From a virus: 37,046 nucleotides of DNA. This document shows, one piece after another, positions 2,350 to 33,116 of the stretch. Made by a program: the position numbers and the translations under genes. Below the pieces are notes generated by a model. The model did no database searches, was not told the DNA's origin, and worked only from the letters and a program-made list of their open reading frames with translations. Numbering within the stretch: position 1 is the stretch's first letter; each line of letters opens with the position of its first letter. The stretch spans positions 1 to 37,046 of IMG/VR virus record IMGVR_UViG_3300030397_000824; one strand, written 5' to 3'.

Positions 2350-2386
2350 TTTGTCGTTCTCCTGAAGGAAATTTTGTTATGTTGAT

Positions 2387-2392
2387 TATTTA
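2387..2392 (-). promoter_or_regulatory. Late-promoter-like TAAATA upstream of the sheath gene
   Basis: GGGTAAATAATC on the minus strand, about 38 nt before the ATG; resembles the T4 late TATAAATA core and recurs before structural genes. Confidence 0.65.
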
Positions 2393-2442
2393 CCCGGGAG
2401 TGCCTATATACGTGGTATGATCCTAAAACATAACTGCTACCA

Positions 2443-4018: not shown

Positions 4019-4437
4019 TTTGGTGTTCCCACGATGGCTGGAACAGATTTCCGTCCAGCAACAAAGGATGCAGCAGTTCTATGCCACCCATCCCATATGT
4101 GCCATTCCCCAACATCGTTATATACCATAATTATGGGTTCTTGAATTTCTTCTTGTGCCAAATGCGCCCAACGTGATTTCCCTTCTGGTTCGTCGCTCAT
4201 CGGATCGGTCCACATTTCGTTTTCTTGCTTAAACCACTCAACCCAATCTTCCAATTTATCCAATCCTGATTCGGCACTTTTACCAAGAAAAACTTTTAGA
4301 GGAAGCTCTGGAACTATTTCCCAATTATATTCGGATGCAGGTTTATCTTCGAGATTGTTATCGTACTCGAAGTAACTAGCTTGTTTCTCCAATTCATCCG
4401 GAGAATACATTTCGAAGAGCGTAACAATCTGTTCCAT
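4015..4437 (-). CDS. ParB/Srx-like N-terminal domain protein
   Basis: Start placed at ATG 4437 (TAATG overlap with the gp15-like stop). Motif EPIIMV...HIWDGWHRTAASFVAGRKSVPAIVG matches the ParB/sulfiredoxin DGxHR signature. Confidence 0.7.
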   Translation of the reverse strand: MEQIVTLFEMYSPDELEKQASYFEYDNNLEDKPASEYNWEIVPELPLKVFLGKSAESGLDKLEDWVEWFKQENEMWTDPMSDEPEGKSRWAHLAQEEIQEPIIMVYNDVGEWHIWDGWHRTAASFVAGRKSVPAIVGTPK

Positions 4438-16530: not shown

Positions 16531-16555
16531 TCAATAGCGGGTGTCATGCTCCAAC

Positions 16556-16587
16556 AAAAAAGGGAGGCCATTATGGTCTCCCTTTTT
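16556..16587 (+). terminator. Rho-independent terminator (possibly bidirectional)
   Basis: AAAAA-AGGGAGGCCA-TTA-TGGTCTCCCT-TTTT directly after the 14251 gene. Confidence 0.85.
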
Positions 16588-16596
16588 GCTTTTAAG

Positions 16597-16602
16597 TAAA
16601 TA
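16597..16602 (+). promoter_or_regulatory. Late-promoter-like TAAATA
   Basis: AGTAAATAATAC between the terminator and 16638. Confidence 0.65.
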
Positions 16603-16637
16603 ATACAGAACAACAAATAACTGCGGAATAACCACCC

Positions 16638-18926
16638 ATGTCACAACAGCAATATTGGCAATTTGAAATTTTCGGCACCGACCCGGACATCATTGGCTTC
16701 TTCGGTGATGCCGGTATTATCCTCCCGGGCGGTACAACCGCTGAACGTCCATCGTCACCCTCTGTAGGACATATTCGTTACAACACCGACCTCGGACAAT
16801 TTGAGGGATTCAACGGTGGTTGGCTTACTTTCGAAACTGGTGCTGCTACCACGTTCGACGCGCTGACTGATACCCCTGCTGGTAAAGCCGGTAGTGCCAA
16901 TCGTGTGATGATTGTTAACTCCGGTGAAACTGCGCTTGAATATTCTTCGGCTCTGACACTGGAAAACGACGGCACGCTTCTTGTCGGAACAGCTTCATAT
17001 GAAACACTCGTTGTTACTGATGACGTAGTTCCAAACAAGCGCTATGTTGATGACCAAGACGCTCTTCAATTGTCATTGTCTGGCGGCTTGATGACCGGCA
17101 CCATTACGATGGGTGGTAATGCGATTTCTGGTCTTCCTCTTACTCCGACTGCTGCAAGCGAAGCGGCTTCGAAAAGTTATGTTGATGGACTGTTTGCTGG
17201 TATTGATCGCAAAGAGTCTGTTCGCCTTGCTACAACCACTGACCTGAACAGCGAAACTGGTGATTCATGGGTACCCGCAGGCTCCGGTGTTGGCAAGACG
17301 ATTACTTCTGATGCAAACACTGCCACCATTGATGGTGTCGCTGTTGTAAACGGTGACCGTATTCTTATCAAGGACGAAGCCGGTGATATTGACAATGGTA
17401 TCTACGACGTGTCTGGCGTTGGTGGTGCTGCTGTTGTTCTTACCCGTTCAACTGACATGGATGGTACTCCTTCGAACGAAGTGAGTGGTGGTACCACGAC
17501 CTTCGTCGTTGAAGGTACAACTAATGCTGCGACACAATGGTCTGTCATTCATGATGGAAGCCTGACTGTAGACACCGATCCAATGGTGTGGACCGTAACC
17601 ACTATTCTTTCCGGAACATTTCTGGAACTGGCTGGTGGTACCATGGTTGGTAACATCACATTCGGTGCTGCTAGCACTCAAATTCTCGGAGACACCACGA
17701 CTACCACAGTTCCCTCATACTCCTTTGTTGGTGATACTGGAACTGGTCTCCACCAAACTTCCGGAGCAGGAACCCTCGCTCTCGTAATCGGTGCAACTTC
17801 CTCGTGGAACTACACTGCAACGGCGCTTACTCCTGCTGTTACCGAAACTCAAGATATTGGTTCGGCTGGCCTGAAGATGCGCGATGTCTACGCAGATCAC
17901 TTTCTGCCTAACTTCGGTGCTGCTGGCGATCCGAGCTACAGCTTCGAAGGCGACTCTGACACCGGTATGTTCAATGGTGGCGGAGATGATTTGGAATTCG
18001 CAATCGGCGGAACTATCGTTGCTTCTTTCACCACATCAGAACTCGACCTTACTGCTCCTGATGGGACTGGTGCTGGTGCCGGTGGCGTTATTGATATCAA
18101 CGCCGGTACTGGTGGCGCAACTGGTGATGGTGGTACCGTGGCAATTACCGCTGGTTCTGGTGGTGGTACTTCCGGTGACGGTGCTGATATTACACTAACC
18201 GGTGGTGGTGCAACTGACGGTAGTGGCGGTAACATCGACTTACTCGCCGGATCAGGTGCAGGAACGAACCAAGCCGGTGGTGGAGTTACCGTTTACGGTG
18301 GTGACAGTACTGGCTCTGCCGATGGTGGACCGGTCGCACTTTCTGGTGGTACTGGCGGAACAACTGCTGCTGGTGGTTACATCAACATTACTGCTGGTGA
18401 TGGTGGTGCTACCTCTGGTGACGGTGGATCGGTTACTATTACCGGTGGTGATGTAAGCAGCGCGTCCGGAGATAACGGTGGTTCAGTTACATTGGTTGCT
18501 GGACAAGGTTCTACCTCTGACGAGGATGGAACAATTGTATTCTCCACACAACGTTCGAGCGAGATTGAAGTTTTCTATGGTTACTCTGAGACAGGTGTAA
18601 CCGGCGCAGCAACCACCCTCATGACTATCCCTATCCCATCTGACGATAGTGCTATTTTCGAAGTCTTTGGAATTGCGCGGAGCGATAGTGCAACTGCTGG
18701 TTTCCGAATCTTTGGTGTTGTAGAGGAAGATGGTGGAGCTACGATTGCTGGTTCGACCGCAACTGATACATCAAACTCTGGAGGCGACTCGGCAGATTGG
18801 AACCTAACGGTTGATGTTAGTGGTTCTAACCTGATAGTTGTTACCGACAACGACGCTGAAGACGTTGATTGGAAACTCAAAGTCCGACTGACAAGTATCA
18901 ACCTTCCATTTGGTGGCGGATCATAA
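16638..18926 (+). CDS. Tail-fibre-like protein with Gly-rich repeats
   Basis: GTTAERP..P..GHIRYNTD, FDALTDTP, AASKSYVD, KESVRLATT...GDRILIKDE...NGIY fibre motifs, then GGxVxITAG repeats. Confidence 0.8.
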   Translation: MSQQQYWQFEIFGTDPDIIGFFGDAGIILPGGTTAERPSSPSVGHIRYNTDLGQFEGFNGGWLTFETGAATTFDALTDTPAGKAGSANRVMIVNSGETALEYSSALTLENDGTLLVGTASYETLVVTDDVVPNKRYVDDQDALQLSLSGGLMTGTITMGGNAISGLPLTPTAASEAASKSYVDGLFAGIDRKESVRLATTTDLNSETGDSWVPAGSGVGKTITSDANTATIDGVAVVNGDRILIKDEAGDIDNGIYDVSGVGGAAVVLTRSTDMDGTPSNEVSGGTTTFVVEGTTNAATQWSVIHDGSLTVDTDPMVWTVTTILSGTFLELAGGTMVGNITFGAASTQILGDTTTTTVPSYSFVGDTGTGLHQTSGAGTLALVIGATSSWNYTATALTPAVTETQDIGSAGLKMRDVYADHFLPNFGAAGDPSYSFEGDSDTGMFNGGGDDLEFAIGGTIVASFTTSELDLTAPDGTGAGAGGVIDINAGTGGATGDGGTVAITAGSGGGTSGDGADITLTGGGATDGSGGNIDLLAGSGAGTNQAGGGVTVYGGDSTGSADGGPVALSGGTGGTTAAGGYINITAGDGGATSGDGGSVTITGGDVSSASGDNGGSVTLVAGQGSTSDEDGTIVFSTQRSSEIEVFYGYSETGVTGAATTLMTIPIPSDDSAIFEVFGIARSDSATAGFRIFGVVEEDGGATIAGSTATDTSNSGGDSADWNLTVDVSGSNLIVVTDNDAEDVDWKLKVRLTSINLPFGGGS

Positions 18927-18945
18927 TAATTAAAGAGAACTAAAC

Positions 18946-21102
18946 ATGGCTGATATAAGAAAAAATCTAGGCGAAGATTCGATTACTCTTCCATCGACTT
19001 CGGCTCCATCTGATACCACCAACAAACTGTATAATGACGGTGGTACGATTACGTTTGACGGTGCAGCGTTGGGTAGCGGTAGTGGCGACGTAACTAAAGT
19101 TGGTACCCCAGTGGATAACCAAGTTGGTGTCTGGACTGGTGATGGAACTATTGAAGGTACGGCGGACTTCCAATGGGATACCGCAAGTGACACACTTACG
19201 ATTGGTGATGGTACGGTAGTTACTCCGGGAATCACGATGAATGGTTCTGCGACTGGTATACCCGTCATCCGATTCCAACAACTTGGTTCAAATCAAGTAA
19301 TCGTTCAATATGTTGATGGTTTCTCTGAATTTCGTATTAATACTACTGGTGCCGATGATATTTCATTTTGGACGAATGGTACTGAACAAGTTTATATTAG
19401 TGGTGCTGCCGCTAACGAAGGTAACCTGAATCTGGTTACTGGTGATCTTCAATTTTCAGAAAGATCGGACCATAATGTATCTGCTCCAGCCGCCAGCCAA
19501 GGTTACTTGTGGGTTCGCGATGATACCCCAAATGTTTTGGTATTCACTGACGACACTGGTACTGATACTGTTCTCGGGGCCGGTGGTGGCGGTGGTGGTG
19601 ATGAAATATCCGATGTTGATGGTGATACTCGAATTCGTGTTGAAGCTGCTGCTGACGAAGACATCATTCGATTCGATACGGGTGATTCCATTGCTGGATT
19701 TCCGGCACAAGCGAATACCGCAATTTTGTCATCCGCACAGTTTACTATTGGCCTCCCTGCTGCAACAGGTGCTACAACCGGTGGACCAGTTAGTTTAACT
19801 GGTGGTACTGGTGGACCAACTGGTGATGGTGGTAATGCTACACTTGCTGCTGGTTCCGGTGGTGCAACTTCCGGTAATGGTGGTGACGTATCAATAACAT
19901 CTGGTGCTGGCCCAACGTCTGGCACCGGTGGTGACATTTCTCTTACTGCTGGTGCTGGTAATTCTGGTGACGGAGGTGCGGTAAACATCACAGCCGGTGC
20001 TTCTAGTTATACTGGTGGTGATTCATTCGGTGGTGCTATTTCTCTCGTAGCAGGAAACTCTGCTGCGGGCGCTGATAATGCATACGGTGGTGCTATTAAC
20101 CTTACTGGTGGTAGTGCAACTGGTACTTCCGGCGATGGTGGTACGATTGCTCTTACCGCTGGTGCTGGTGGTTATTCCCCGGGTCAGGTTACCATTACTG
20201 GTGGTGCTGTTGGAACCGGACAGGGTGATGCAGGAGATGTTGTCATAACTGGTGGTACTGGTGATGGTAACAACTATTACGGTGGTGATATAACCATTAC
20301 TGGTGGTGCTAATGATTATGCTGCGGCAACTGCTTATGGTGGTAGCGTTAATATCTATAGTGGTGGCGCGGGGACTGGCTATGCTGGTAGCGTTTACATT
20401 GTCGGTGGCGTCGGTGGTGATACCAGTGGTAGTGTTTACATCACGGGTGGTAGCGGTTCCGGTGGTGGTGTTCCGGGCTCTGTGAATCTAACTGGTGGTG
20501 GTAGTAGTGGTAGTGCGAACGATGCTGGAGACGTTATCATCAATGGTGGTATAGCTACTGGTGCAAACCGTGGTGGTGATGCGTCCATTAACGGTGGTGA
20601 CGGTGGACCAACCGGTGGACAAGGTGGTTCGGCAACAATGATCGCTGGTGATGGCGGTTCTACTTCCGGAGATGGACAAGGTGGTCTTGTTCAATTGCGT
20701 GCTGGTGATGGTGGTCCTACCAACGGTGCTGGTGGTGATATTACTCTTACTCCGGGTGCTGGTTCTGGAACCGGTACCGATGGCGCGGTAATTATTTCAC
20801 AATCTAGTGCTGCACCAACGACTCCGGCCAACAAATTCTATAACCTAACTGGTGATATCTACTGGGGTGGAAATCTTTTATCCACCATCCATTCAGAATC
20901 TTTCGTTAATGGTGATCTGGCTGGCGGGGTTCTAACCGTTACCCATAGCTTGGGTCGTCAGTACGTTCATGTGAGCGTCTATGATAATAATAACGAATTG
21001 ATCCAGCCAGATACAGTAACGGCGACTTCCACATCCGCAACGGCGATTGATCTAACTTCCTTTGGTACGCTGACGGGCACTTGGAATGTTGTAATTTCGT
21101 AA
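18946..21102 (+). CDS. Gly-rich modular fibre protein
   Basis: Shared modules (KLYN.GG, GDVTKVGTPV, ERSDH/LWVR.DTPN, DGDT.I.VE.AADED), about 20 Gly-rich repeats, C-terminal THSLG..V.VSVYD domain. Confidence 0.8.
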   Translation: MADIRKNLGEDSITLPSTSAPSDTTNKLYNDGGTITFDGAALGSGSGDVTKVGTPVDNQVGVWTGDGTIEGTADFQWDTASDTLTIGDGTVVTPGITMNGSATGIPVIRFQQLGSNQVIVQYVDGFSEFRINTTGADDISFWTNGTEQVYISGAAANEGNLNLVTGDLQFSERSDHNVSAPAASQGYLWVRDDTPNVLVFTDDTGTDTVLGAGGGGGGDEISDVDGDTRIRVEAAADEDIIRFDTGDSIAGFPAQANTAILSSAQFTIGLPAATGATTGGPVSLTGGTGGPTGDGGNATLAAGSGGATSGNGGDVSITSGAGPTSGTGGDISLTAGAGNSGDGGAVNITAGASSYTGGDSFGGAISLVAGNSAAGADNAYGGAINLTGGSATGTSGDGGTIALTAGAGGYSPGQVTITGGAVGTGQGDAGDVVITGGTGDGNNYYGGDITITGGANDYAAATAYGGSVNIYSGGAGTGYAGSVYIVGGVGGDTSGSVYITGGSGSGGGVPGSVNLTGGGSSGSANDAGDVIINGGIATGANRGGDASINGGDGGPTGGQGGSATMIAGDGGSTSGDGQGGLVQLRAGDGGPTNGAGGDITLTPGAGSGTGTDGAVIISQSSAAPTTPANKFYNLTGDIYWGGNLLSTIHSESFVNGDLAGGVLTVTHSLGRQYVHVSVYDNNNELIQPDTVTATSTSATAIDLTSFGTLTGTWNVVIS

Positions 21103-21114
21103 GAGAAAAATAAT

Positions 21115-21312
21115 ATGAAACTGAGAGTAAGCATACGCAAAGCGCTGAAGCAATATGTCACTGACAATGGTCCTTGTTCTTCTGAAGAAGCTGTTGTTAG
21201 TTGTACCATGACTGGAAAGCCGGAGCGCCGGGTTCGTCGGATTTTGGGCATGATGATTCGTGCCGGTAAAATCGTCGAAACAGGAAACGGGGATCAAATC
21301 CGTATTCCATAA
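21115..21312 (+). CDS. Small basic protein, winged-helix-like pattern
   Basis: 65 aa filling the gap between two fibre genes; helix-helix-helix (ERRVRRILGMMIRAGKI) plus beta-hairpin pattern. Confidence 0.55.
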   Translation: MKLRVSIRKALKQYVTDNGPCSSEEAVVSCTMTGKPERRVRRILGMMIRAGKIVETGNGDQIRIP

Positions 21313-21332
21313 AATAACAAGGCAAAAGAATT

Positions 21333-23489
21333 ATGGCAAAGCGTACAGGTGATATTGAATTAATTGGTGCCGTGACCGCGCCTGATGGTGCAGCGGCAAC
21401 TAATGTTGGTGAAGATATTTCTTTCACCGCTGGTACTGGTAATACTACCGGTGCCGGTGGCGCTATCACGATCACTGGAGGTGTTGGTGGAAACGCGGCT
21501 GACGGTGGTGATATCACAATTACTGGTGGTGGTGCAAACGCTAACGGTGGTGAGCCCCCAATTTTTGGTGGTGACATTAATATCACTGGTGGTGCAAATG
21601 TTTATGCCGGTGAATATGCTTATGGTGGTGCAGTAAACATTACCGGTGGTAACGGTGGCGGAACCGGTGGTGATGTCAACATTACCGGTGGTATTTCTAC
21701 TAGTACATACGATTCCGGTTCCGTTCGTATTACTGGTGGTGAAGGTGGTAACTTTTCCGGTGAAGTAGAAATACGCGGTGGTGATGGTGCTGCGAGTCGA
21801 GAGCCGGGGGGCATTCAAATATACAGTGGTCGAACTGGTATTGGTGGTTCTTTTGACGCTGGTACTGTAGGGATTTATGGTGGTGTGGGTTACGAGGGGT
21901 ATGCCGGTGGTAATGTCAGTATTTTAGGCGGTTCTGGTAATGGAGCCGGTGGTGCTGGTGACGGTGGCTACGCTCGAATTGCCGGGGGTAATAGTGGAAC
22001 AACCGCCGACGGTGGTCAAGTTCAAATTACAGGTGGTAATGGCGGTGCAACATCAGGTGATGCTGGCGACATTGTTATAACACCGGGTACCGCAGCGGGC
22101 TCTGGCTCTGATGGTGCTATTGTAATTTCTCAAACTGCTGCTCCCACTGTAACGACAGACAAACTTTATAACGTTGGTGGTACTCTTACTTGGAACGGTA
22201 CCGACATTTCGACTGCTGGTGGTGATGTCACCAAAGTTGGTACACCTGTCAATAATGAACTTGCTGTTTGGACAGGCGACGGGACTCTCGAAGGTGAGTC
22301 AGAACTTACATTTGTTGGTGGTGCGTTAACTGTCGGCATAACGGCTGGTGGTGAATTACGTTCTGGTACCGGTCAAATTCTATCTATCACCCCGGGATCA
22401 GGTGGTGTTGGAATGAACATCAATGGTTCCTTCAACGCAGCCGGAACAGGTGGTCTTACAACTGTTTCTGGTGGTACCTCTGGAAACGCAGATGGTGGTA
22501 ACCTTGTCCTGCAAGGTGGTGCTCCTGCTGCTTCCGGTGATGGCGGTGATGTGACCATCAACGGTCGTGATGGTGGTGCTACTTCTGGTGATGGTGGTAG
22601 TGTCTTAATCACTTCCGGTACTGGTTCTGATCAGGGCGATGGTGGTAATATCACTCTGACCCCGGGTTCCGGTGCTGGTGCTGGTACCGATGGTATCGTA
22701 AATTTTGTCGGCCAAACAAGCGCATTGGATGTTTCCGGTGATATTACCCTTAACGATTCTGGTTTTGGTGGAGTTATTTCTAACCCGACTGATCGCATAT
22801 TTAATTTCCAATCTGGTGATGCCGCAGAATCGGCAATGCGTTTTCAAAGTAGTGGTGCTGTAACATTCGGTCACATCTACGGAAACGCTTCAGACTTTGG
22901 TATCTACGATGATTCTCTTGTTGCAGCGGTTACTGTCTCTAGCAGTGGTAGTGTCACTATCCGTGACAGCGGTACTGGTCGAATTGCAACAGACGGTCAA
23001 GGAATCAACGTTACCGGTGAAATGGATATTACCAGTCATGTTAATTTAGGTGCGCTATCTGACCTCGTTTTCACTGAAAAAGCTGATCATACGTCAACTC
23101 CTACAGCGGGGTTTGGTTACCTATGGACCCGTAATGATTCTCCCAACACTCTGATATTCACAGACGATGCTGGAACAGATCATGACCTAACTGCTGCTGG
23201 TGGTGGAAACAATCTCTCAGTAACAACAGTAACGGGAACATCATTCACGGCGGCTGCATGGGATGCAGTAATGGTCGATGATGACACCGCAGGGTCCACG
23301 GTAACTATTACGCTTCCGGCTGGTTCTACTGACGATCAAATCGTTGTCAAGAAGTTGGGTACAACTGCTAACGTAATTGTTGATGGAGATGCTTCTGAAA
23401 CGATTGACGGTGCTACTACTTTTACTCTTACTGCACAATACGCTTCCGTATCTTTGATTTGGAACGGATCAGAATGGAGCATAATCTAA
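21333..23489 (+). CDS. Gly-rich modular fibre protein with a C-terminal adaptor-like domain
   Basis: N-terminus MAKRTGDIELIG; shared modules; C-terminus TITLPA...IVVKK...ETIDG...SVSLIWNGSEWSII. Confidence 0.8.
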   Translation: MAKRTGDIELIGAVTAPDGAAATNVGEDISFTAGTGNTTGAGGAITITGGVGGNAADGGDITITGGGANANGGEPPIFGGDINITGGANVYAGEYAYGGAVNITGGNGGGTGGDVNITGGISTSTYDSGSVRITGGEGGNFSGEVEIRGGDGAASREPGGIQIYSGRTGIGGSFDAGTVGIYGGVGYEGYAGGNVSILGGSGNGAGGAGDGGYARIAGGNSGTTADGGQVQITGGNGGATSGDAGDIVITPGTAAGSGSDGAIVISQTAAPTVTTDKLYNVGGTLTWNGTDISTAGGDVTKVGTPVNNELAVWTGDGTLEGESELTFVGGALTVGITAGGELRSGTGQILSITPGSGGVGMNINGSFNAAGTGGLTTVSGGTSGNADGGNLVLQGGAPAASGDGGDVTINGRDGGATSGDGGSVLITSGTGSDQGDGGNITLTPGSGAGAGTDGIVNFVGQTSALDVSGDITLNDSGFGGVISNPTDRIFNFQSGDAAESAMRFQSSGAVTFGHIYGNASDFGIYDDSLVAAVTVSSSGSVTIRDSGTGRIATDGQGINVTGEMDITSHVNLGALSDLVFTEKADHTSTPTAGFGYLWTRNDSPNTLIFTDDAGTDHDLTAAGGGNNLSVTTVTGTSFTAAAWDAVMVDDDTAGSTVTITLPAGSTDDQIVVKKLGTTANVIVDGDASETIDGATTFTLTAQYASVSLIWNGSEWSII

Positions 23490-23936
23490 ATGTCATATCT
23501 ACTACCCCAGAATGCTGGATCAGTTCAAACAACAGGTACATTTACACCAGCACTTACCCCCACTACTTCCGGAAGCATAACACTTGGTGATGATACCCTA
23601 AGTTACATCAAAACGGGACTTCATGTTCATATCGAAGGTTTTATCGATGTGGGCTCCACAAGCAGTCCGGTCGGCAATCTAACGCTAACTGGTCTTCCGT
23701 TTACATCTGAAGCAAGTGCCGTATCGTCTGAACACCTGAATGGGTTTCCAATCGTATCAGAACAATGGAGTTCCGCACCAGCAAACCTATTGATAGGACG
23801 GATTGGTGGTGGAAGCACAACAATTATTTTCTTGGATGGGGCGAACGGGACGGGTGGTACTAGCGCTGTATCGGCGGGTGACGTTCAATCATCAACGGGT
23901 TTTTACTTTAATTTCTCGTATACAGCGAACGCATAA
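23490..23936 (+). CDS. Fibre tip / receptor-binding-like domain protein
   Basis: GTFTPAL...YIKTG..VHIEG.I...LTLTGLPF pattern of phage fibre C-terminal beta domains. Confidence 0.65.
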   Translation: MSYLLPQNAGSVQTTGTFTPALTPTTSGSITLGDDTLSYIKTGLHVHIEGFIDVGSTSSPVGNLTLTGLPFTSEASAVSSEHLNGFPIVSEQWSSAPANLLIGRIGGGSTTIIFLDGANGTGGTSAVSAGDVQSSTGFYFNFSYTANA

Positions 23937-23962
23937 ATTAACATCATAGGTGTGGAAAACAA

Positions 23963-26005
23963 GTGGCCAAACGAACCGGTGGAATTGAATTAGTTGGTGG
24001 AATTATCTCTGCATCAGGTGCAGCTATTGGTGATCCCGGCGACAATATTAATATCACTGCGGGAGCGGGCAACGCGACATCAGGTGATGGTGGTTCCGTA
24101 AATCTAACAGCGGGTGCTGCTGTCGGTGCCGCTTCAAACCATGATGGTGGTGATGTTGTTCTTACCCCGGGTGCCGGAGTTGGTTCCGGTTCCGTTGGTG
24201 GTGTTGTTATAACGCCCGTTGGAACACCTACAGACACAACCAATAAACTCTATAATGATGGCGGTGCCCTTACGTGGAACGGGACTGATATTTCCACAGG
24301 CGGAAGCGGTGATGTCACAAAGGTCGGAACCCCAGTAGATAACCAAGTTGGTATCTGGACCGGTGACGGTACACTCGAAGGCGATGCCATTTTCACACTG
24401 AACAATTCCGCACCAACCGCAACGCTCACGTTTGGTGATGGTTCGACCATCGTAAGCCCAAATATCACCATGAATGGTACTGCCGCTGGCAGTCCTATTA
24501 TCAATTTTCAGCAGGGTGGTGTACAGCGCGGTTCTGTTGGGTTCTTTGATAATATCGGTGGCTCGGCGGATACTGTCAGAATCACTTCTCAGTCTGGTCC
24601 CGTTCAACTTGCGCCCACCAACTCGTTAACACTTACCGCAACCAACGGTGAGGGTATTGAACTGTTTGATGGCGGGATAGTATTCAACGAGCGTGCTGAT
24701 CATGCTACTACCCCCGTTGCGGCCAAGGGTGAATTGTGGGTTCGCAACGACACTCCTAATACTCTCGTGTACACGGATGACACGGGTACCGACTTTGACC
24801 TTCTAGCGGCTGGTGGTGATGTAACCAAAGTCGGTACTCCAGTTGATAATCAAATTGGTGTGTGGACCGGTGATGGAACCATTGAGGGGGATACTAATTT
24901 CCAATGGAACGGTAGCGTTCTATCCATTGGCGCAAGCGGGTGGCAACTAAGTGGGTTAAACACCACTACTTTCACATTCACTGGAGGAGCCGCTGGAACT
25001 GTTCAATTATTGATTGAGAATTCTGCCAATACTGATCTTGGTTCGATAATCGCACGGACTACCGGTTCTGGACAAATTGGTTTCACTGATGCCGGTGGTG
25101 GTAATACGTACATCGCAGAAAATGATGGTGACCATATTTGGTCTACAGATGGTGCTACCGAGATAATGCGGCTTAATAGAATTGCCGCTGGTGATGGTGT
25201 CCTTGAGTTAACTGGTAGTTTGGCTATCGACGAGCGCTCCGACCATGCCTTGACACCGACAGCCGGAATCGGTGAAATTTGGGTCCGTAATGATTCTCCG
25301 AATTCTCTGATGTTCACAGATGATGCTGGTACAGATTTTGTATTGAATAGTACTTCGGCAGGCGGTTCAGATACCCAACTACAATACAATAACGGTGGAG
25401 TTCTGGGAGGAATAGCTGGTACAGTATGGGACGATATTAACGGTGATCTTCGTTTCAACTCAACATTCACCGGACCATTCTTTTTCATCAACGGTAACAC
25501 AGTTAACGGTTCTGATTTCGTAGCCAACATTGGATCGAACAACAATTCACTGAGTGGCGAAATTCTGGGAATTGATTACTCGGGCACAAACAGCGCGGAC
25601 ACGCTGCGTATTAATAATACTGGTACCGGTAGAAACCTTGTTGTTCAGGATAATGGTTCCACGGTCATGTCCATTGCGGCGACTGGATACATCGATGATT
25701 ATCCCGGTTCTCCTGCCGATGGTGAGGTTCTTACGTGGAACACTTCAAATGGTAGAGCCGAATTTACTGCCGCCAGTGGTGCTTCGAAGTTTGCTCAAGA
25801 CAACACCACAACCGCAACATCAGAAGTATTCAACCATGCTTTGGGTTCCCTTGATGTCATCGTTCAGGTTTTTGATTTAACAGTATCTCCCCGTGAACAA
25901 TTTGTACCAACCACAGTGGAAATAACTGACGCCAATAATGTAACGATTACGGTTCCGACTGCGCCGGGTGCTGCTGGTGAATATCGTGTCGTTGTGATGG
26001 CGTAA
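23963..26005 (+). CDS. Modular fibre protein
   Basis: GTG start; MAKRTGGIELVG N-terminus; two GDVTKVGTPV and two ER.DH modules; GSDTQLQYNNGG; C-terminal NHALG..DV.VQVFD domain. Confidence 0.8.
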   Translation: MAKRTGGIELVGGIISASGAAIGDPGDNINITAGAGNATSGDGGSVNLTAGAAVGAASNHDGGDVVLTPGAGVGSGSVGGVVITPVGTPTDTTNKLYNDGGALTWNGTDISTGGSGDVTKVGTPVDNQVGIWTGDGTLEGDAIFTLNNSAPTATLTFGDGSTIVSPNITMNGTAAGSPIINFQQGGVQRGSVGFFDNIGGSADTVRITSQSGPVQLAPTNSLTLTATNGEGIELFDGGIVFNERADHATTPVAAKGELWVRNDTPNTLVYTDDTGTDFDLLAAGGDVTKVGTPVDNQIGVWTGDGTIEGDTNFQWNGSVLSIGASGWQLSGLNTTTFTFTGGAAGTVQLLIENSANTDLGSIIARTTGSGQIGFTDAGGGNTYIAENDGDHIWSTDGATEIMRLNRIAAGDGVLELTGSLAIDERSDHALTPTAGIGEIWVRNDSPNSLMFTDDAGTDFVLNSTSAGGSDTQLQYNNGGVLGGIAGTVWDDINGDLRFNSTFTGPFFFINGNTVNGSDFVANIGSNNNSLSGEILGIDYSGTNSADTLRINNTGTGRNLVVQDNGSTVMSIAATGYIDDYPGSPADGEVLTWNTSNGRAEFTAASGASKFAQDNTTTATSEVFNHALGSLDVIVQVFDLTVSPREQFVPTTVEITDANNVTITVPTAPGAAGEYRVVVMA

Positions 26006-26008
26006 ATA
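26003..26008 (+). promoter_or_regulatory. Late-promoter-like TAAATA overlapping a stop codon
   Basis: GCGTAAATATAAG about 25 nt upstream of 26033. Confidence 0.45.
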
Positions 26009-26032
26009 TAAGAATAATTTGAGGCAAGAATA

Positions 26033-28276
26033 ATGAGATTTGGTGAAGTCGAACTGCTAGGAAATATCATCTCCGCAGATGGTGCTGCTGCTGGTGACCC
26101 GGGTGACAATATTACTATAACCGCTGGTTCTGGTAATGCTACGTCCGGTGATGGTGGTTCGGTTAATATTTCCGCTGGTGTTGGTGTTGACGCAGGCGAC
26201 GGTGGTAACATCAACCTTACCCCGGGTGCAGGCGCAGGAGCGGGTTCAGCCGGTGCTATCATCATAGCTCAAACTGCTGCTCCTACCGTAACAACCGACA
26301 AACTATATAACGACGGCGGTGCCCTTACATGGAACGGAATAGACATATCCGCTGCTGCTGGTGACGTTACTAAAGTTGGAACCCCAGTTGATAATCAGGT
26401 CGGTGTTTGGACTGGTGATGGAACGATTGAGGGCGATGCCAATTTTGTTTGGACCGGAACCACACTTGATGTTAATGCAACCATCACACTCGGAACACAG
26501 AATTGGATAATTGGTGGTAACGGTACATCGCGGCTCACAATAAATTCGAATGATGTTGTTTCTTCGGGTATTACGTTTAACGATAGTGCTGGTGGAACAG
26601 TTGGCCATGTCTATGGTGATGATGACATTTACCTTGCAGCGGCAAACAACGACATAACTTTTCGTGGTCGTCAAAATGGTGCTGCTATCATGTACCACGA
26701 TGATGTTGAGAAGTGGCATACAACCAATAATGGTGCAGCCCTAGATAGCGGACAACGCATTAACTTCGATGGGTCCGTTGGTACTGGTGATACATACATA
26801 ATTTCCGACGCTACTGATGTATTGAATCTCTACGCTGGTGGCTCCGCTCTTGATTGGGACGGTACTACCGTCGGTGGTACACTGGGTGAACTTCGGTTTA
26901 CCGAACGCGCAGATCACGCATCGATTGTTACAGCCGGAGAAGGTTACTTGTGGGTTCGGAATGATACTCCTAGTAGCTTGATATTCACCGATGATGCTGG
27001 TACTGATGTTGATCTAACAGCGATCAACGCGGCTGGAATATCAGGAACCCCGGTAAACAATCAAGTCGCCGTATGGGTAAATGATTCTGATATCGAAGGC
27101 GCTTCTGGTTTAACCTACGATGGAAATGAGCTTTTTATCTCTAGTTCATCAGCAGAAGTATTGGCTATCAATGATACCGGTGGAGCTACCGCAGCCGCCA
27201 CCGACACCCGAATGACATTCCAAGGTAATGGAGCAGTTCGTGCCAGACTGCGATACTCGGGTGGAGATTTCCGCATGGAAAATCTCGAAGGACCAATCGA
27301 CCTAAGTCCTGCACTCAGTAGTGGTGATGAAATCATCGATATTCTTCGGGGTGGACTACAGTTTCTTGAGCGGGCAGATCATCCAGTAACCGCAATTCCG
27401 GCACGTGGCCAGTTGTGGCTTCGTAATGATACACCAAACGTTTTGGTCTTTACCGATGATGCCGGAACAGATCACGATTTGACTGGTGGCGGAACTCCTA
27501 TTAGCATATCGGATGCCGACGGTGATACCCAAATTCAGGTTGAAGAAGCTGCTGATGAAGATACCATTCGATTCGATACCGGTGACAACGTAACTGGTTT
27601 CCCTGCTCAAGCGAATGCTTTGATTGTATCGTCTGGTCAATTCACTCTTGCCCTACCCGCTGCAAACGTTGCAGCAACCGCTGGCGGTGATGTATCCCTG
27701 ACAGCCGGTGTTGGTAACACAACTGGTACCGGTGGTGATGTATCTCTAACAGCCGGTGCGGGTGGTGCGACTGCTGCGGGTGGTGCGGTTTCCGTAACTG
27801 CTGGTGATGCTGGCGCAACCTCGGGTGATGGTGGTTCCATCACAATTACCGGTGGTGACGCAAGTGGTTCCGGTGATGGTGGTAGTATCAACCTTGTTCC
27901 GGGAACCGGTGCAGGTACGATTGGTATTGATGGTAAGACCAACGTTACCAACCTCGAAGCTCCAATGCCACTCAATAACCAGACTGGAACAACGTATGGT
28001 CCGGTTTTGGATGACGCTGATAAAATGATTACGCTGAACAATGCTTCGGCGGTCACGGTAACAATACCAGCCAACTCGTCTGTTGCCTTTCCGATTGGAA
28101 CCAAATTGAACTTTATGCAATTGGGTGCCGGTCAGGTGACTATTGCAATTACGACAGACACGCTGAATATTCCATCTGCGTTAACAGCAAACCTTACTGA
28201 GCAATATGCGACGGCAACTGCGTTGAAAGTAACAAGCACATCTTGGGTACTATTTGGTAACCTAGAGGCAGCGTAA
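26033..28276 (+). CDS. Modular fibre protein with a C-terminal adaptor-like domain
   Basis: MRFGEVELLGNIISADGAA N-terminus; shared modules; C-terminus NNQTGTTY...VTVTIPANSSVAFPIGT...QLGAGQVTI...WVLFGNL. Confidence 0.8.
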   Translation: MRFGEVELLGNIISADGAAAGDPGDNITITAGSGNATSGDGGSVNISAGVGVDAGDGGNINLTPGAGAGAGSAGAIIIAQTAAPTVTTDKLYNDGGALTWNGIDISAAAGDVTKVGTPVDNQVGVWTGDGTIEGDANFVWTGTTLDVNATITLGTQNWIIGGNGTSRLTINSNDVVSSGITFNDSAGGTVGHVYGDDDIYLAAANNDITFRGRQNGAAIMYHDDVEKWHTTNNGAALDSGQRINFDGSVGTGDTYIISDATDVLNLYAGGSALDWDGTTVGGTLGELRFTERADHASIVTAGEGYLWVRNDTPSSLIFTDDAGTDVDLTAINAAGISGTPVNNQVAVWVNDSDIEGASGLTYDGNELFISSSSAEVLAINDTGGATAAATDTRMTFQGNGAVRARLRYSGGDFRMENLEGPIDLSPALSSGDEIIDILRGGLQFLERADHPVTAIPARGQLWLRNDTPNVLVFTDDAGTDHDLTGGGTPISISDADGDTQIQVEEAADEDTIRFDTGDNVTGFPAQANALIVSSGQFTLALPAANVAATAGGDVSLTAGVGNTTGTGGDVSLTAGAGGATAAGGAVSVTAGDAGATSGDGGSITITGGDASGSGDGGSINLVPGTGAGTIGIDGKTNVTNLEAPMPLNNQTGTTYGPVLDDADKMITLNNASAVTVTIPANSSVAFPIGTKLNFMQLGAGQVTIAITTDTLNIPSALTANLTEQYATATALKVTSTSWVLFGNLEAA

Positions 28277-31068
28277 TGTTAATCCTTGGTAGCATTAGCG
28301 TTCAGTCTACTATCACGGCAAGCGGTAACGATGTTGGCCGTGGTAGCTCCACGGCGCGTTCTAATTATCTAGGCACCTTGTCTATTGCCAAGACTTTCGA
28401 ATATTTGTTTGAAGGTGGTGATCCGGATTATCTTCTGGAAGAAGGTGGTGATACAACCAATGATTTGTTTGTTGGTGATTCTACTGTTCTGCCTACCTTT
28501 TCTCAGCCAGCGCTTTCGTTTGCATCTTCGGATTCTATAACGTGGCCAAATGACGATTCTTTTGCTCAATTAGAAGGTACTGGTAATTGGGGTACCGGAA
28601 ATTATATCTACGAACTATGGTACCAACAATCCGATTATACCGGTCATGGATTGGATGAAAATACCGATGATGGTTTCGTCCAAATGATCGGTGCGGCGAA
28701 CAATAGCACTCGATACTTGGGACGTTATTTTAATGGCATATCTGGCGGAAACGAAGTATCTTATTTTCCTGCCGGTGGAAGAACCGGGAATAGAAACTGG
28801 GAATCTTTTGTTGATACGTATGGGGACGATGTCCCACATCAATTGCTAGAAGTACACGAGTCCGCCAACCGAGATAACTATCTTGTGATACTGGATGGAA
28901 TTCCGATTGCAAGCGGAACAGACTCGGATGGGGTAATCCAAAGTTGGGATAATGCCAACGACATTGCATTCAATGGTAATGCAGCGCTGGCTGATGCTCA
29001 GCGTTCTGGTGCAACTATGGGATCATTCACACTATACGACAACGGTGAAAACGTCACCTTGCAAATGGCACGTGAGTTGTTTGAAGTTAGTGCATTAAAC
29101 AATCAGGATATGCTCACAGTTCCGAAGTGGGTTCCATTAGATGCAGAAAACGTCACGGTCGAACCGTATATGTTCAATGTGGTAACAATGGGTGATGTAT
29201 CAGGGGCAACTGGTGTACGCTCTGGCGCAATTCCTCGCGGCAATGGTGTTGGTAAAGTTTACTTTGAATTTGAAGTTATTGATCAAGGAGATAACACATC
29301 AGCAAGCCGTGTTGGTATTCGACGAATGATAACAATCGCTGATGTGGGTGATGTGACCGATGCGTCAGAAGATGGTCAAAAACACCATTTCTATATTGAT
29401 TCAAACAACATTGAGTATGATGACGAAATCGACACTGGGGTAGATGTTGATCCATTAACAATCGGAATGCGTACCGGTGTTACGATCATGGTAGCCATTG
29501 ATTGGAGTACGGGTGATTTTTGGTTTGGTCGTGATGGAACATGGGGAGATAATAGCGGTGATCCCGCAACCGGTGCCAATCCGGTAGACACAATTGATCG
29601 CAACACTAACTGGGCTGCGCATGTTTGGAATAATGGGACATCCGGTAATAGTGTTGTCCGTCTCAAGACCCACCTACATGAAATGTTGTATACACCACCG
29701 AGTGGGTTTACTGCATGGACTGGTAATATAACACCCGAGGTTGGTGGGCGTGGCCCAATTGCTCGCCGTGCCGCCATCGATAGTATGGGTTCCCAAATTG
29801 ATCGAGAATATAAGTGGGAGGGTACAACCACGACATATCTGTATGATTTCAATGAAACTAATAAGCGATATCCATTAATTGAAGGTAGTGGTATGGGTGA
29901 GCGCACTCTAGGTGGTGCGCAACTTAGTCATGCCTCGGTTGATTCCGTAAATTGGGGTAATTCCAGTAATGATCCATTTGTTAATAATACGGCTAATATT
30001 TCGTTTGATAATGCGGCACACACATGGGAACTGTGGTTTCGGCAACCAGATAATTCGCAAGACCTGTCGATTCTGATTGGTGCAACCAACAATACTAATA
30101 TTGTACTGGGTAAACCTACTGCGGCAATTAATATGCCAGCCGCACGTAACAATTTTAATGCAACATTGGCATGGGAATCAGAAATTGATGTCTATGGTGA
30201 TAATCAAGCACACCAACTTATGGAAGTCCATGATGGTGCAAACGGAACTGATTACTTTGTTACGCTTGACGGGATGCCGGTTGCTAGTGGATCAAATAGT
30301 GGGTTTTGGGGGATTCTTTCCGCTGGAGCGTACCGATTCAATAGCGATGGCGCTAGCGGCGATGGTTCCGATGCGTCGGGTGCAGACTTTGGTTCATTTA
30401 CCCAATATCGCGGGGGTCCAAGTTTGACATTGTTTGATTGTCGAAAATTATTCCGGGCTTCAGCGCTATCTGGACACCAAATGTTGACCTCCCCACAATG
30501 GTGTGCACTCGACTCTGTGAATTGTACATTTGGTGGAACAGGGAACAAAGATGTTACACTGGGCGATGTATCTAGCAACACTGGTGCTCGTTCCTACGCA
30601 ATACCAAGAAACGGAAAAGTATATTTTGAAATCGAAGTGCTAGCCCAAGGTGATAGTACATTTGGCCGGGTTGGTGTTCGTAAGCTTCTTGATCGCTTCA
30701 ATGTTGGTGATAATGCGGTAGAAAATGCGTCGGATATATTCTACCAAGTTAATACGAACTTTAACGATGGTGATGGTAGTATAGGAGCTACCGGACTTAG
30801 TAGCCAAACCACAGGACTTATCATGCAGTGTGCCATCGATTGGGATACCGGAAATCTTTGGTGGGGTAATGATGATACATGGGCATCAAGCGGCGAGCCC
30901 GATACCGATACAAACCCACTTGTGGTTATAGATGATGAAGAAGATTGGGCCGTTTGGGTTGGTGTGAACGGCGCTGTTGGTAACCAGCAATATCGATTGG
31001 TCACCGCAGCCGGAGATTTGAACCATACACTTCCAACCGGATACTCTGCATGGGAAGATGCAGACTAA
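28276..31068 (+). CDS. Putative adhesin / receptor-binding protein with two tandem [ConA/LamG-like + SPRY-like] units
   Basis: Internal duplication: ELW(Y/F).Q...IGA.NN...D.YGD...HQL.EVH...LDG.P.ASG and GKVYFE.EV..QGD...RVG.R...AIDW.TG..W.G....W...P.G..AW, each twice. TAATG coupling. Confidence 0.75.
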   Translation: MLILGSISVQSTITASGNDVGRGSSTARSNYLGTLSIAKTFEYLFEGGDPDYLLEEGGDTTNDLFVGDSTVLPTFSQPALSFASSDSITWPNDDSFAQLEGTGNWGTGNYIYELWYQQSDYTGHGLDENTDDGFVQMIGAANNSTRYLGRYFNGISGGNEVSYFPAGGRTGNRNWESFVDTYGDDVPHQLLEVHESANRDNYLVILDGIPIASGTDSDGVIQSWDNANDIAFNGNAALADAQRSGATMGSFTLYDNGENVTLQMARELFEVSALNNQDMLTVPKWVPLDAENVTVEPYMFNVVTMGDVSGATGVRSGAIPRGNGVGKVYFEFEVIDQGDNTSASRVGIRRMITIADVGDVTDASEDGQKHHFYIDSNNIEYDDEIDTGVDVDPLTIGMRTGVTIMVAIDWSTGDFWFGRDGTWGDNSGDPATGANPVDTIDRNTNWAAHVWNNGTSGNSVVRLKTHLHEMLYTPPSGFTAWTGNITPEVGGRGPIARRAAIDSMGSQIDREYKWEGTTTTYLYDFNETNKRYPLIEGSGMGERTLGGAQLSHASVDSVNWGNSSNDPFVNNTANISFDNAAHTWELWFRQPDNSQDLSILIGATNNTNIVLGKPTAAINMPAARNNFNATLAWESEIDVYGDNQAHQLMEVHDGANGTDYFVTLDGMPVASGSNSGFWGILSAGAYRFNSDGASGDGSDASGADFGSFTQYRGGPSLTLFDCRKLFRASALSGHQMLTSPQWCALDSVNCTFGGTGNKDVTLGDVSSNTGARSYAIPRNGKVYFEIEVLAQGDSTFGRVGVRKLLDRFNVGDNAVENASDIFYQVNTNFNDGDGSIGATGLSSQTTGLIMQCAIDWDTGNLWWGNDDTWASSGEPDTDTNPLVVIDDEEDWAVWVGVNGAVGNQQYRLVTAAGDLNHTLPTGYSAWEDAD

Positions 31069-31124
31069 TGGATCGATAGCTTAATCAACTTGTATTCTAA
31101 TAATAGTGGTATTATATTTTCTTC

Positions 31125-32420: not shown

Positions 32421-32436
32421 CAATCCACTTTATCGG

Positions 32437-32442
32437 TAAATA
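32437..32442 (+). promoter_or_regulatory. Late-promoter-like TAAATA
   Basis: TCGGTAAATATAGTTA upstream of 32466. Confidence 0.65.
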
Positions 32443-32465
32443 TAGTTAGTGATTAGGAACTAACT

Positions 32466-33116
32466 ATGTCAAAAGACGATTTCTGGAAAACCGTTTCCCT
32501 AGACCCTACCGGGGTCGTGGCTGGAACGTATAACATTCCACAACTTACTATTTCAGAAGACGGTCGTATCACCAGTGCATCCGGTGGTTCGGTGTCTACT
32601 GTTTCCACTGTATCCACAATTGCCGACCTTCCATCAGTCGTGGCACCATCCAATGGTGACTTGGCGGCGGTAATGGATGATGGGTCAGGAAACGAGCAAC
32701 TGTATATCTGGAATGATGCCAATTCCGACCTTGGGAATCCATTGCTTCGTTGGCGTTTGGTTGGTTCTACCGAGACTTCGGTAACTCGTAAGGACTATCG
32801 TCAAAGTATTATCGACATCACCGCCGTGCAGGACATCGATTCAGTAATTCCTGATACCGGAATCATCAAACGCGTTACCGTGGAAATCACCACACCGTAT
32901 TCGGGCGGTGCTACGATGGAAATACAGGATGCCGGTTCATTTGTTTATATGCCATTTTCGTCCATAAATCCTCAATTAGCAGGAACATACATCGAAGATT
33001 TATCAGGTAATGTGAACACCATTGCAACAAATGGGTCCGGACAAATCCGGGCAATTGTCGGTGGTGCTCCGGGTGTTGGAGATGGCGTAGTTTACGTCGA
33101 ATGGATTAACGGTTAA
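32466..33116 (+). CDS. Virion structural protein with a tail-fibre repeat
   Basis: TGVVAGTY....TISEDGRITSAS matches the GV.AGTY..VTVD..GR.T fibre repeat; beta-sandwich-like C-terminus. Confidence 0.65.
   Translation: MSKDDFWKTVSLDPTGVVAGTYNIPQLTISEDGRITSASGGSVSTVSTVSTIADLPSVVAPSNGDLAAVMDDGSGNEQLYIWNDANSDLGNPLLRWRLVGSTETSVTRKDYRQSIIDITAVQDIDSVIPDTGIIKRVTVEITTPYSGGATMEIQDAGSFVYMPFSSINPQLAGTYIEDLSGNVNTIATNGSGQIRAIVGGAPGVGDGVVYVEWING

Follow-up and report, generated by a model that had tools for sequence, protein, structure and literature searches.

Candidate docking of N-terminal head peptides by C-terminal beta-sandwiches in the segmented fibre array of a giant uncultured phage

We sought to understand how the pieces of a virion fibre could find one another when each piece is encoded by a gene of its own. 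The source of the DNA is a giant uncultured phage that encodes its virion fibres in separate pieces. The stretch analysed here (the window) comprises 37,046 nucleotides, positions 1 to 37,046 of IMG/VR record IMGVR_UViG_3300030397_000824, and sequence searches within the source covered a 103-kb record, or ~28% of the genome. The first-pass annotation had read a C-terminal domain shared by two fibre proteins as a socket for an N-terminus shared by three, and had suggested that the protein with both parts could self-extend into fibres of variable length. The genes and the parts discussed below, each protein being called by its first coordinate, are as follows.

14251..16530, + strand: 759-aa first gene of the array, conserved in relatives
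16638..18926, + strand: proximal fibre segment; N1 start class, KVRLT end class
18946..21102, + strand: fibre segment; N2 start class, type-B HxLG end
20857..21099, + strand: type-B HxLG sandwich, predicted socket for long AKRTG-type heads (from alignment and hhalign)
21115..21312, + strand: 65-aa ORF that separates the B-socket gene from the long-head gene that follows
21333..23489, + strand: fibre segment; long head, PF25692-like beta-sandwich end
21333..21368, + strand: long head, 12 codons; predicted plug for the B socket
23490..23936, + strand: 148-aa separately encoded putative knob and distal tip; 'MSY..PQ' start class
23963..26005, + strand: fibre segment with GTG start; long head and type-A HxLG end
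23963..23998, + strand: long head of 23963, followed by a 26033-like neck
25760..26002, + strand: type-A HxLG sandwich, predicted socket for short MRFG-type heads
26033..28276, + strand: fibre segment; short head, 'LEAA' end class
26033..26062, + strand: short head, 10 codons; the peptide docked in the complex model
28276..31068, + strand: 930-aa putative distal protein with two tandem halves
32466..33116, + strand: 216-aa conserved gene, last of the array in relatives

Shared heads and sandwich ends

Every ORF named in the first pass was confirmed. A related head of 10-12 residues opens three of the fibre proteins, 21333, 23963 and 26033. The common N-terminus seen in the first pass was confirmed by sequence matches of the first 60 residues: residues 1-60 of 23963 matched the start of 26033 at 74% identity (E 3.9e-19) and the start of 21333 at 47% identity (E 2e-9), and besides these two the 103-kb record returned only matches to internal Gly-rich repeats. 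The N-termini are shared as a mosaic: over residues 1-12, 23963 is identical to 21333 at 10 of 12 positions, and the 'neck' that follows (residues 13-52) is identical to 26033 at 32 of 40 positions and to 21333 at only 10 of 26. Two head types can be told apart, a short MRFG-like type (26033) and a long AKRTG-like type (21333 and 23963), with a core pattern common to both. Mean pairwise identity among long heads was 84%, against 39% over the next 30 residues, and among short heads 62%, against 26% over the next 30. What marks a docking peptide, a short conserved N-terminal stretch on the attached protein, is found here in the 10-12-residue heads. Residues 1-45 of 23963, used in a word-index search, retrieved no sequence but their own, and GenBank phages gave no match to the locus by megablast or to the 23963 protein by tblastn.

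The C-terminal HxLG domains of 18946 and 23963 are homologous (28% identity) and fall into subtype A (23963) and subtype B (18946), which profile-profile comparison with hhalign joined at 97% probability (E 9e-11). Both window copies match the profile motif H-x-L-G ... V.V.V[YF]D ... P ... [YW].VV. The shared domain reported in the first pass therefore stands, with a correction to its motif: three residues, not two, separate LG from the first V. The AF2 model of type A is a compact seven-strand beta-sandwich (pLDDT 90.8, pTM 0.78). Fold searches of the PDB with this sandwich returned generic matches only (best Foldseek E 0.07, best VIA Z 6.7), the N-terminal region of CBA120 TSP4 matched at noise level (Z 4.8), and the type-B profile found chance-level matches in the PDB. 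Matches of this generic kind demonstrate neither novelty of the fold nor a tie to gp10-like domains. No Pfam family matched it, and it overlaps with the C-terminus of phrog_16122.

The HxLG sandwich is a generic, common repeat module. In a representative library its profile had 1613 matches at E<=1e-3, and 129 of the best 150 contain tandem copies. It is not confined to fibres: the last ~70 residues of a 242-aa capsid decoration protein, PDB 9nx3, align with the type-A profile (E 0.01) over a region that takes in the HxL motif and the YRV..V.G end. In that protein the domain presumably points outward as a free module, and we know of no partner peptide for it; a literature search on 9NX3 found no relevant paper.

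The remaining genes give the array its frame. Homologues of 14251 sit before the N1 fibre gene in four relatives (L016, L019, L024, L057), and its C-terminal 95 aa are 65-90% identical to the homologues in L016 and L019; no sequence in Pfam, PHROG or the PDB matched it. The N1 start of 16638 is common to the first fibre of the same four relatives, and this start class opens every related array. The end of 16638 is 54% identical to that of L017_1106, and a PDB sequence search with the protein gave no match. Short ORFs of 60-62 aa resembling 21115 are found at the corresponding position in L016, which has two, and in L058; 21115 itself had only a weak match to DUF5817_CT (E 0.019). At the far side of the array, homologues of 32466 occur in L016, L019 and L057, with 55-66% identity for L016 and L019.

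The two segments without a sandwich of the HxLG kind end in different domains. Against PF25692 (Phage depolymerase C-terminal beta-sandwich, Pfam gathering cutoff 25 bits) the isolated 21333 domain scored 27.6 bits (E 4e-6) and the whole protein 22.5; L016_7358 has an end 90% identical to this one, and the 21333 stop codon abuts the start of 23490. The end of 26033 is a distinct domain (the C-terminus of phrog_21978), 75% identical to the end of L016_9716, and the gene shares one base with the start of 28276. The halves of 28276 are 37% identical to each other (E 2e-73), and its only other match was a weak, sub-threshold one to SPRY (E 0.0037). For 23490, an AF2 model built from three sequences, with pLDDT only 67, has a knob/head fold. 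At that pLDDT of 67 the model matched the C-terminus of the Dettilon tailspike (Z 11.8, rmsd 5.6, 141 aligned residues, 27% identity) and, with Z 7-9, the heads of reovirus sigma1/sigmaC and of the receptor-binding proteins (RBPs) of Listeria phage PSA and lactococcal phages. A role for 23490 as a fibre chaperone was dropped in view of the knob fold. Where the first pass saw 'adaptor-like' ends followed by tips, a tip is tentatively supported for 23490 at the level of fold, and 'adaptor-like' is an interpretation, not an observation.

Which end precedes which start

We compared which end class precedes which start class, also in relatives where the order of segments has changed. In the window, 26033 begins 27 nt after 23963, and 18946 is followed by the conserved 65-aa ORF and then by 21333; as the first pass had noticed, the next fibre gene after each HxLG end starts with a head, with the small ORF intervening at one of the two junctions. 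Among relatives, a type-A end was followed by a short head at 6/6 junctions (window, L016, L017, L056, L065, L066) and a type-B end by a long head at 5/5 (window, L016, L017, L024, L058), giving zero crosses in 11 junctions while the segment order is permuted. Two further pairs behave similarly. The KVRLT end precedes an N2-type start at 3/3 junctions (window, L017, L024), and the PF25692-like end precedes an MS[YH]..PQ start at 3/3 (window, L016 and an NCBI contig with proteins P0018 and P0130, whose junction was read from gene sizes and the proteins' own termini). From phage to phage, the N1, N2 and long starts are found on proteins with differing end classes. In the fused relatives L031 and L041 the chain runs on past the sandwich into a segment resembling the split heads, and the cultured phage PaBG shows the same end/start pattern in gp229/gp228.

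The head of 23963 does not lie next to a B socket, yet the long type has been kept on a 26033-like neck, so that linkage of adjacent DNA cannot explain this case. A head and a socket occur together in two proteins, 23963 and L016_4576, and each of them is heterotypic.

We also counted start motifs at 84 non-redundant junctions from IMG/VR and metagenomes. With motifs that were defined after the data had been seen, a related start was present in 40 following genes compared with 62/516 other ORFs, and a strict start in 14/29 following genes compared with 7/385. Of 70 upstream proteins in the broad sets, 27 themselves bear this kind of start and 14 come close to matching the start of their following gene, which means that tandem paralogues account for part of the enrichment. 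Since the motif is post hoc and tandem paralogy confounds the count, we regard the broad-motif enrichment as weak support for pairing. One motif 'hit', in L059, is simply a sulfotransferase's P-loop start. The sandwich also occurs as a free end: an A-type fibre is the last fibre gene in L019/L020, L057 and L059, and one relative, 91% complete, has no head-bearing gene. By eye, alignment A3 gave no link between the sequence of the socket edge strand and the presence of a following gene.

A model of one joint

The first-pass annotation had proposed modelling a trimeric C-domain against an N-terminus, and we predicted the complex formed by three copies each of 23963 residues 600-680 and 26033 residues 1-60. 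The pair scored ipSAE 0.91 and the best of three controls 0.00, the score being the model's own confidence in a 3+3 run on shallow custom alignments outside the tool's calibration. A mark of 0.91 is reached by 58/80 solved complexes and by 2/110 mismatched pairs; structure models usually pass close cousins of a true partner, and the score is not informative on class specificity. At least 96% of contacts agreed between runs, with partner pLDDT of at least 84. The predicted contacts fall on the head, where residues 1-5 and 9-11 of 26033 meet socket residues 645-652 of 23963; all predicted socket contact residues are 638, 645-652 and 664-666. Searches among solved complexes gave nothing similar (Foldseek E 0.07 and VIA Z 6.7 at best), so recall of a known structure by the model is unlikely. 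Together, the tracking of classes across junctions, the conservation of the heads and this model support a docking of the head by the sandwich of the preceding segment, as predicted in the first pass. Most likely, the small terminal beta-sandwich of one piece holds the opening 10-12 residues of its successor.

Proposed assembly, alternatives and known systems

In the assembly that we propose, the virion fibre would be put together non-covalently from segments that are made separately and are probably trimeric, the end of one attached to the start of the next. The last ~80 residues of a segment would form the seven-strand HxLG sandwich, whose edge strand and neighbouring loops would bind the head of the next segment, type A taking the short MRFG-like head and type B the long AKRTG-like head. 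At least two more end/start classes would act alike, KVRLT with N2 and PF25692-like with MSY..PQ. A stem of 16638 and then 18946 would present a single B socket at its end, for which the long-head proteins 21333 and 23963 would compete. Occupation by 21333, carrying the 23490 knob, would yield a short fibre; occupation by 23963 would yield a long one, in which its A socket takes 26033, followed by 28276. Pair specificity, and with it the competition at the B socket, we infer from the classes. To the reading as a whole, segments joined through end/start pair classes with competition for the B socket, we assign a probability of roughly 0.55. A bolder version, in which at least four end/start connectors form a portable assembly code and each virion carries a random mix of the two fibre types with no DNA rearrangement, is tentative, and we would sooner doubt it than assert it.

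The self-extension of 23963 suggested in the first pass is not supported, because a long head, which follows B ends, and an A socket, which precedes short heads, are combined on the same protein; judged by adjacency, its pairing looks heterotypic. Binding of its own head in its own socket, with variable-length fibres capped by 21333 or 26033, would draw on the presence of both parts in one protein, on the core pattern common to the two head types, on the difficulty that structure models have in telling close cousins apart, and on the distant arrays L044 and L118/L121, in which similar heads sit on consecutive socket-bearing proteins. The perfect sorting of the 11 junctions and the heterotypic make-up of both head-and-socket proteins make it very improbable, though a limited form would keep a slight chance if head specificity is loose. 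Competition for the B socket, giving short knob-tipped and long lectin-tipped fibres, is more likely. Of the idea that fibres are diversified at assembly, polymerisation to variable length thus falls away, and two alternative distal assemblies would take its place.

Two other arrangements have to be weighed against competition for the B socket. The fibre proteins could be parallel paralogues, each anchored to the virion through its own N-terminus, with the HxLG domain merely a distal Ig-like decoration or adhesion module and the tracking of classes a consequence of co-inherited adjacent DNA. The generic, often tandem nature of the sandwich and its presence in a capsid decoration protein fit such a picture, as do the free ends in several relatives and the many upstream proteins that share a start motif with their following genes; recombination within repetitive shafts would keep an adjacent end and start together without any binding. 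However, four or five separate docking sites on the virion would then have to come and go with the array, and the picture leaves unexplained why heads are conserved far above necks, why the unlinked long head of 23963 is retained, and why the complex scored 0.91 against 0.00 with contacts exactly on the head. We consider it unlikely. A single collinear chain in gene order, 16638-18946-21333-23490-23963-26033-28276, would need neither branching nor competition if 23490 were a gp35-like connector receiving the 23963 head. All other junctions do follow gene order, and T4 places the small protein gp35 between its fibre halves (PMC3004832). Yet the 23490 model has, at moderate confidence, a knob/head fold typical of distal receptor-binding ends, its L016 homologue precedes a LamG gene instead of a long-head gene, and elsewhere the long head always comes after a type-B sandwich (5/5). 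The chain in gene order seems improbable to us.

Docking peptides of fibres are already established in Klebsiella phage and coliphage systems, and the present case would extend a known principle. In K1-5/SP6, G7C and Klebsiella phages KP32/KP34, a conserved N-terminal peptide of 7-29 aa docks a secondary RBP on a domain of another protein; the peptides vary by phage group and the modules are exchangeable (PMC6872550, PMC13352976). In KP32, assembly fails if either partner is lost (PMC13352976). The predicted likeness lies in a short conserved N-terminal peptide that docks one fibre protein on another. Those phages form side branches from a T4gp10-like socket located N-terminally in the primary protein, whereas here the socket would be a C-terminal HxLG beta-sandwich giving end-to-end extension, and a single array combines several distinct classes of end/start pair. 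The T4gp10-like family was not detected, and 18946 and 23963 gave no Pfam match.

If the joints are real, they would provide a readable wiring rule for the multi-gene fibre arrays of uncultured phages: the end class of a gene would name the gene that attaches to it, turning 'hypothetical proteins' into an assembly diagram. Such a rule would explain how segments are reshuffled among relatives with assembly kept, and how alternative host-binding tips could be displayed without invertible DNA. The HxLG/head pair is small (~80 aa plus ~12 aa) and is present in many environmental phages as well as in PaBG; it had no match among the Pfam families or solved complexes searched.

The long tail fibre of T4 is likewise built of consecutive trimeric segments, gp34-gp35-gp36-gp37, with genes in assembly order and non-covalent end-to-start joints (PMC5537660, PMC3004832). 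The likeness is one of logic only, and six of the window's proteins gave no Pfam or PHROG match to the gp34-gp37 families at E<=1e-3. T4 makes one fixed chain with a monomeric hinge; the putative joints here look like portable cassettes, ordered differently from relative to relative, with one socket apparently contested by two proteins. The sheath was best matched (35-37% identity) by jumbo myoviruses whose genomes measure 348-469 kb and which we take to be kin of Rak2. A hyperbranched multi-fibre apparatus is found in the jumbo myoviruses Rak2, phiK64-1 and phiKp24 (PMC9700779, PMC10253068, PMC6872550). They share with the present array many fibre genes in one array and conserved N-terminal peptides. 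Their fibres are mostly depolymerase spikes joined via T4gp10-like domains; in the present array a depolymerase domain was looked for and not found, and the shafts are Gly-rich, with putative HxLG joints.

Heads and ends of the fibre proteins

The fibre proteins of the array (14251 to 33116, + strand; genes are named by their start coordinates) are built as mosaics from a small set of recurring modules: Gly-rich repeats, the motif 'KLYN', and a ~150-aa unit that spans 'GTP..N..W' to 'ERADH..LW.RND..FTDD' and is present in one or two copies per fibre protein. The ORFs described in the first-pass annotation exist as stated, and its observation that several of them share starts and ends was confirmed. 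Three proteins, 21333, 23963 and 26033, open with related sequences, to which no further matches were found in the 103-kb record. Internally, these three align with 18946 only from about residue 11-12 onwards; the first 10-12 residues, here called the head, are therefore specific to the N-terminus. The C-terminal ends of 18946 and 23963 are likewise homologous (28% identity; profile-profile comparison 97% probability, E 9e-11) and represent subtypes B and A, respectively, of a beta-sandwich that we refer to as the HxLG sandwich. Of these predicted sockets the 103-kb record contains one of type B and one of type A, together with three heads, long in 21333 and 23963 and short in 26033.

Mean pairwise identity among long heads (n=6) was 84%, versus 39% over the following 30 residues, and among short heads (n=6) it was 62% versus 26%. 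Judged by their sequences, the heads behave as units. In 23963 the N-terminus is a mosaic in its own right, with a head identical to that of 21333 at 10/12 positions and a neck identical to that of 26033 at 32/40. Its head is also the only one that lacks its predicted socket in the adjacent gene, the upstream gene being 23490.

Pairing of end and start classes across relatives

We compared the gene contexts of homologues, including syntenic relatives that share the flanking genes (14251-like on one side; 32466-like, DUF7831, RlaP and RNA-ligase on the other) and carry arrays of different composition.

Fibre arrays in gene order, each gene given as start class-end class (starts: N1, N2, MSY, long, short; ends: A, B, KVRLT, LEAA, PF25692-like). 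L numbers denote related loci.
Window: N1-KVRLT, N2-B, long-PF25692-like, knob, long-A, short-LEAA, 28276
L016: N1-A, short-B, long-PF25692-like, MSY-LEAA, then further genes
L024: N1-B, long-KVRLT, N2-...
L017: ...B, long-KVRLT, N2-A, short-...
L019/L020 and L057: N1-A only

The start class of a gene tracked the end class of the preceding gene although the order of segments is permuted between arrays. Type A was followed by a short head at six non-redundant junctions (window, L016, L017, L056, L065, L066) and type B by a long head at five (window, L016, L017, L024, L058), while a KVRLT end preceded an N2 start, and a PF25692-like end an MS[YH]..PQ start, in 3/3 cases each. No cross-pairing of classes occurred in the junctions compared. 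In three of the five B-to-long-head junctions the two genes are separated by small ORFs (60-65 aa, one or two per junction) from a family that lies inside fibre arrays:

Window 21115-21312 (+), small ORF
L016 6944-7126 and 7143-7331, small ORFs
L058 881-1069, small ORF

The usual place of these ORFs is between a type-B-ended gene and a long-head gene; after type-A ends, L062 carries a 61-aa ORF whose start is similar, and an NCBI contig carries another of 61 aa, a candidate member by its size. The family has only a weak DUF5817_CT match (E 0.019); a role in assembly or as a small DNA-binding protein is conceivable.

Two features of L017 deserve mention. At positions 1-1105, upstream of its long-head gene, an intact type-B sandwich (963-1088) stands at the end of a frame otherwise broken into short ORFs; either the gene has decayed or assembly introduced a frameshift. 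In the product of 1106-4126, the LEAA-type end domain of 26033 lies internally, at residues ~90-215 within a longer fused protein, so that array end domains can be internal as well as terminal.

On a wider scale, among IMG/VR loci retrieved by the A and B profiles, an M-x-[FYTHW]-G start occurred in 14/29 genes directly after a C-terminal HxLG domain and in 7/385 other ORFs, and a broader motif occurred in 40/84 following genes (non-redundant junctions, metagenome contigs included) versus 62/516 other ORFs, both motifs having been defined post hoc on data already seen. Part of this enrichment is due to tandem fibre paralogues, since a start of this kind is also present in 27/70 upstream proteins, and in 14/70 the start nearly matches that of the following gene. 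In the fused proteins L031 and L041, a segment resembling split heads continues the chain past the sandwich, which provides a weak fusion/fission ('Rosetta stone') argument. The same pattern as in the window was present in the cultured Pseudomonas phage PaBG (L054, 207756-210823), where an HxLG-like sandwich is present in gp229, in gp228 and in gp227 (70 aa), and head-like peptides open gp229 and gp228; in this phage the joint could be tested.

The HxLG sandwich and the predicted joint

A complex of three copies of 23963 residues 600-680 and three copies of 26033 residues 1-60, folded with a separate alignment for each, reached an ipSAE of 0.91 in all three runs compared with 0.00 for the best of three controls, where ipSAE is the model's own confidence and does not separate close cousins, and where the tool's calibration at that mark (58/80 solved complexes, 2/110 mismatched pairs) is only a rough guide because copies and own alignments differ here. 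The runs shared at least 96% of contacts, with partner pLDDT of at least 84. Confident contacts joined head residues 1-5 and 9-11 to socket residues 638, 645-652 and 664-666 on an edge strand and neighbouring loops, with modelled in-register pairing of socket residues 647-650 and head residues 2-5. By our reading of the starts listed, many distant following genes share the contacting head positions (M1, an aromatic residue or Thr at 3, G4, G10).

The sandwich itself is widespread. A profile search of 1.84 billion representatives returned 1613 proteins at E<=1e-3; among the best 150 of these, 129 had at least two copies, as counted from a search table showing up to 12 matched stretches per protein, and 20 of the 21 single-copy proteins had the domain at the very C-terminus. 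Its model is a seven-strand beta-sandwich (pLDDT 90.8) with generic structural neighbours only. Residues 170-242 of PDB 9nx3 chain A, the C-terminal domain of a capsid decoration protein of solved structure, aligned with the type-A profile at E 0.01, motifs included; a literature search on 9nx3 found no paper. Being widespread, tandem and present in 9nx3, the domain is a common Ig-like building block rather than a dedicated socket by nature, of which A (23963-like) and B (18946-like) are sharply conserved subtypes at fibre ends. In three lineages (L019/L020, L057, L059) an N1-to-A protein is the terminal or sole fibre gene, followed by a Stealth, sulfotransferase or 32466-like gene, and no head-bearing gene was found in a relative that is 91% complete. 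The sandwich can thus be a free distal end, with docking an added use.

The general principle of fibre docking is already known. In K1-5/SP6, G7C and Klebsiella phages, secondary receptor-binding proteins dock through short conserved N-terminal peptides (PMC6872550; experimentally validated, PMC13352976) onto a T4gp10-like branching domain (PMC6872550), and T4 gp34, gp35, gp36 and gp37 join end to end (PMC5537660, PMC3004832). The joints predicted here from sequence and model resemble both systems, but their receiving domain is a different one and C-terminal, and there are several pair classes, which relatives arrange in different orders. Pfam and PHROG searches (E<=1e-3) placed none of the six proteins searched in the T4 fibre families, and Pfam gave no match to a T4gp10-like family.

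Proposed fibre assembly and genomic setting

We propose, with a probability of about 0.55, a docking chain in which the HxLG end of one segment would receive the head of the next. Under the class rule, 18946 (B) would take 21333 or 23963, and 23963 (A) would take 26033. Since the B socket would fit either long head, one stem may carry two alternative distal assemblies, 21333 with the putative knob protein 23490, or 23963, 26033 and 28276. Pairs could also be preserved without function: each gene's end lies on DNA adjacent to the next gene's start, and recombination within the repetitive shafts would keep the two together. Head conservation and the complex model argue for more than linkage, which cannot account for the conserved head of 23963 because the predicted socket is not adjacent to it.

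The first-pass annotation had proposed that 23963, carrying both plug and socket, could self-extend, with 21333 and 26033 capping chains with different tips. This interpretation is partly supported. Class tracking, head conservation and the complex model support its socket for the head; for self-extension a long head would have to enter an A socket, a pairing never seen in adjacency, and on this sequence evidence it is very improbable. A strictly collinear chain through 23490 we consider a minor alternative to the docking chain with two distal assemblies.

The model of 23490 (148 aa; moderate confidence, pLDDT 67) has the knob/head fold of viral attachment proteins, matching the Dettilon tailspike C-terminus (Z 11.8, rmsd 5.6, 141 aligned) and the reovirus sigma1/sigmaC, PSA and lactococcal RBP heads (Z 7-9). 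28276 (28276-31068, +; 930 aa) is a tandem duplication of two ~465-aa halves (37% identical, E 2e-73), the second with a sub-threshold SPRY match only; the L016 array has no homologue. The 21333 stop codon adjoins the 23490 start, and the 26033 end and 28276 start overlap by one base, spacing that often accompanies translational coupling.

The window opens a 103-kb IMG/VR record, of which it is the first 37 kb; at an estimated completeness of 28%, the full genome would be roughly 370 kb. T4-type genes (tail sheath, sheath stabiliser, head-tail adaptor) flank the array, and the sheath finds its best matches (35-37% identity) in jumbo myoviruses with genomes of 348-469 kb, including Sinorhizobium phage Phosso, Serratia phage BF and Xanthomonas phage XbC2. 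The array adjoins neck genes, not baseplate genes, and matches PHROG families that include 'head decoration' and 'tail fiber'; with this position and mixture, tail, neck and head fibres are all candidates. Two further genes were noted nearby:

2443-3531 (+), HNH endonuclease gene (phrog_681/559), on the opposite strand, inserted between tail sheath and neck genes
31125-32420 (+), sulfotransferase/Stealth_CR2 fusion gene after the fibre array

In relatives, a Stealth-only gene (L019 14132-14938) or a sulfotransferase-like start (L059) directly follows the terminal type-A fibre, which points to a conserved link of the fibres with an enzyme that modifies glycans or sulfate.
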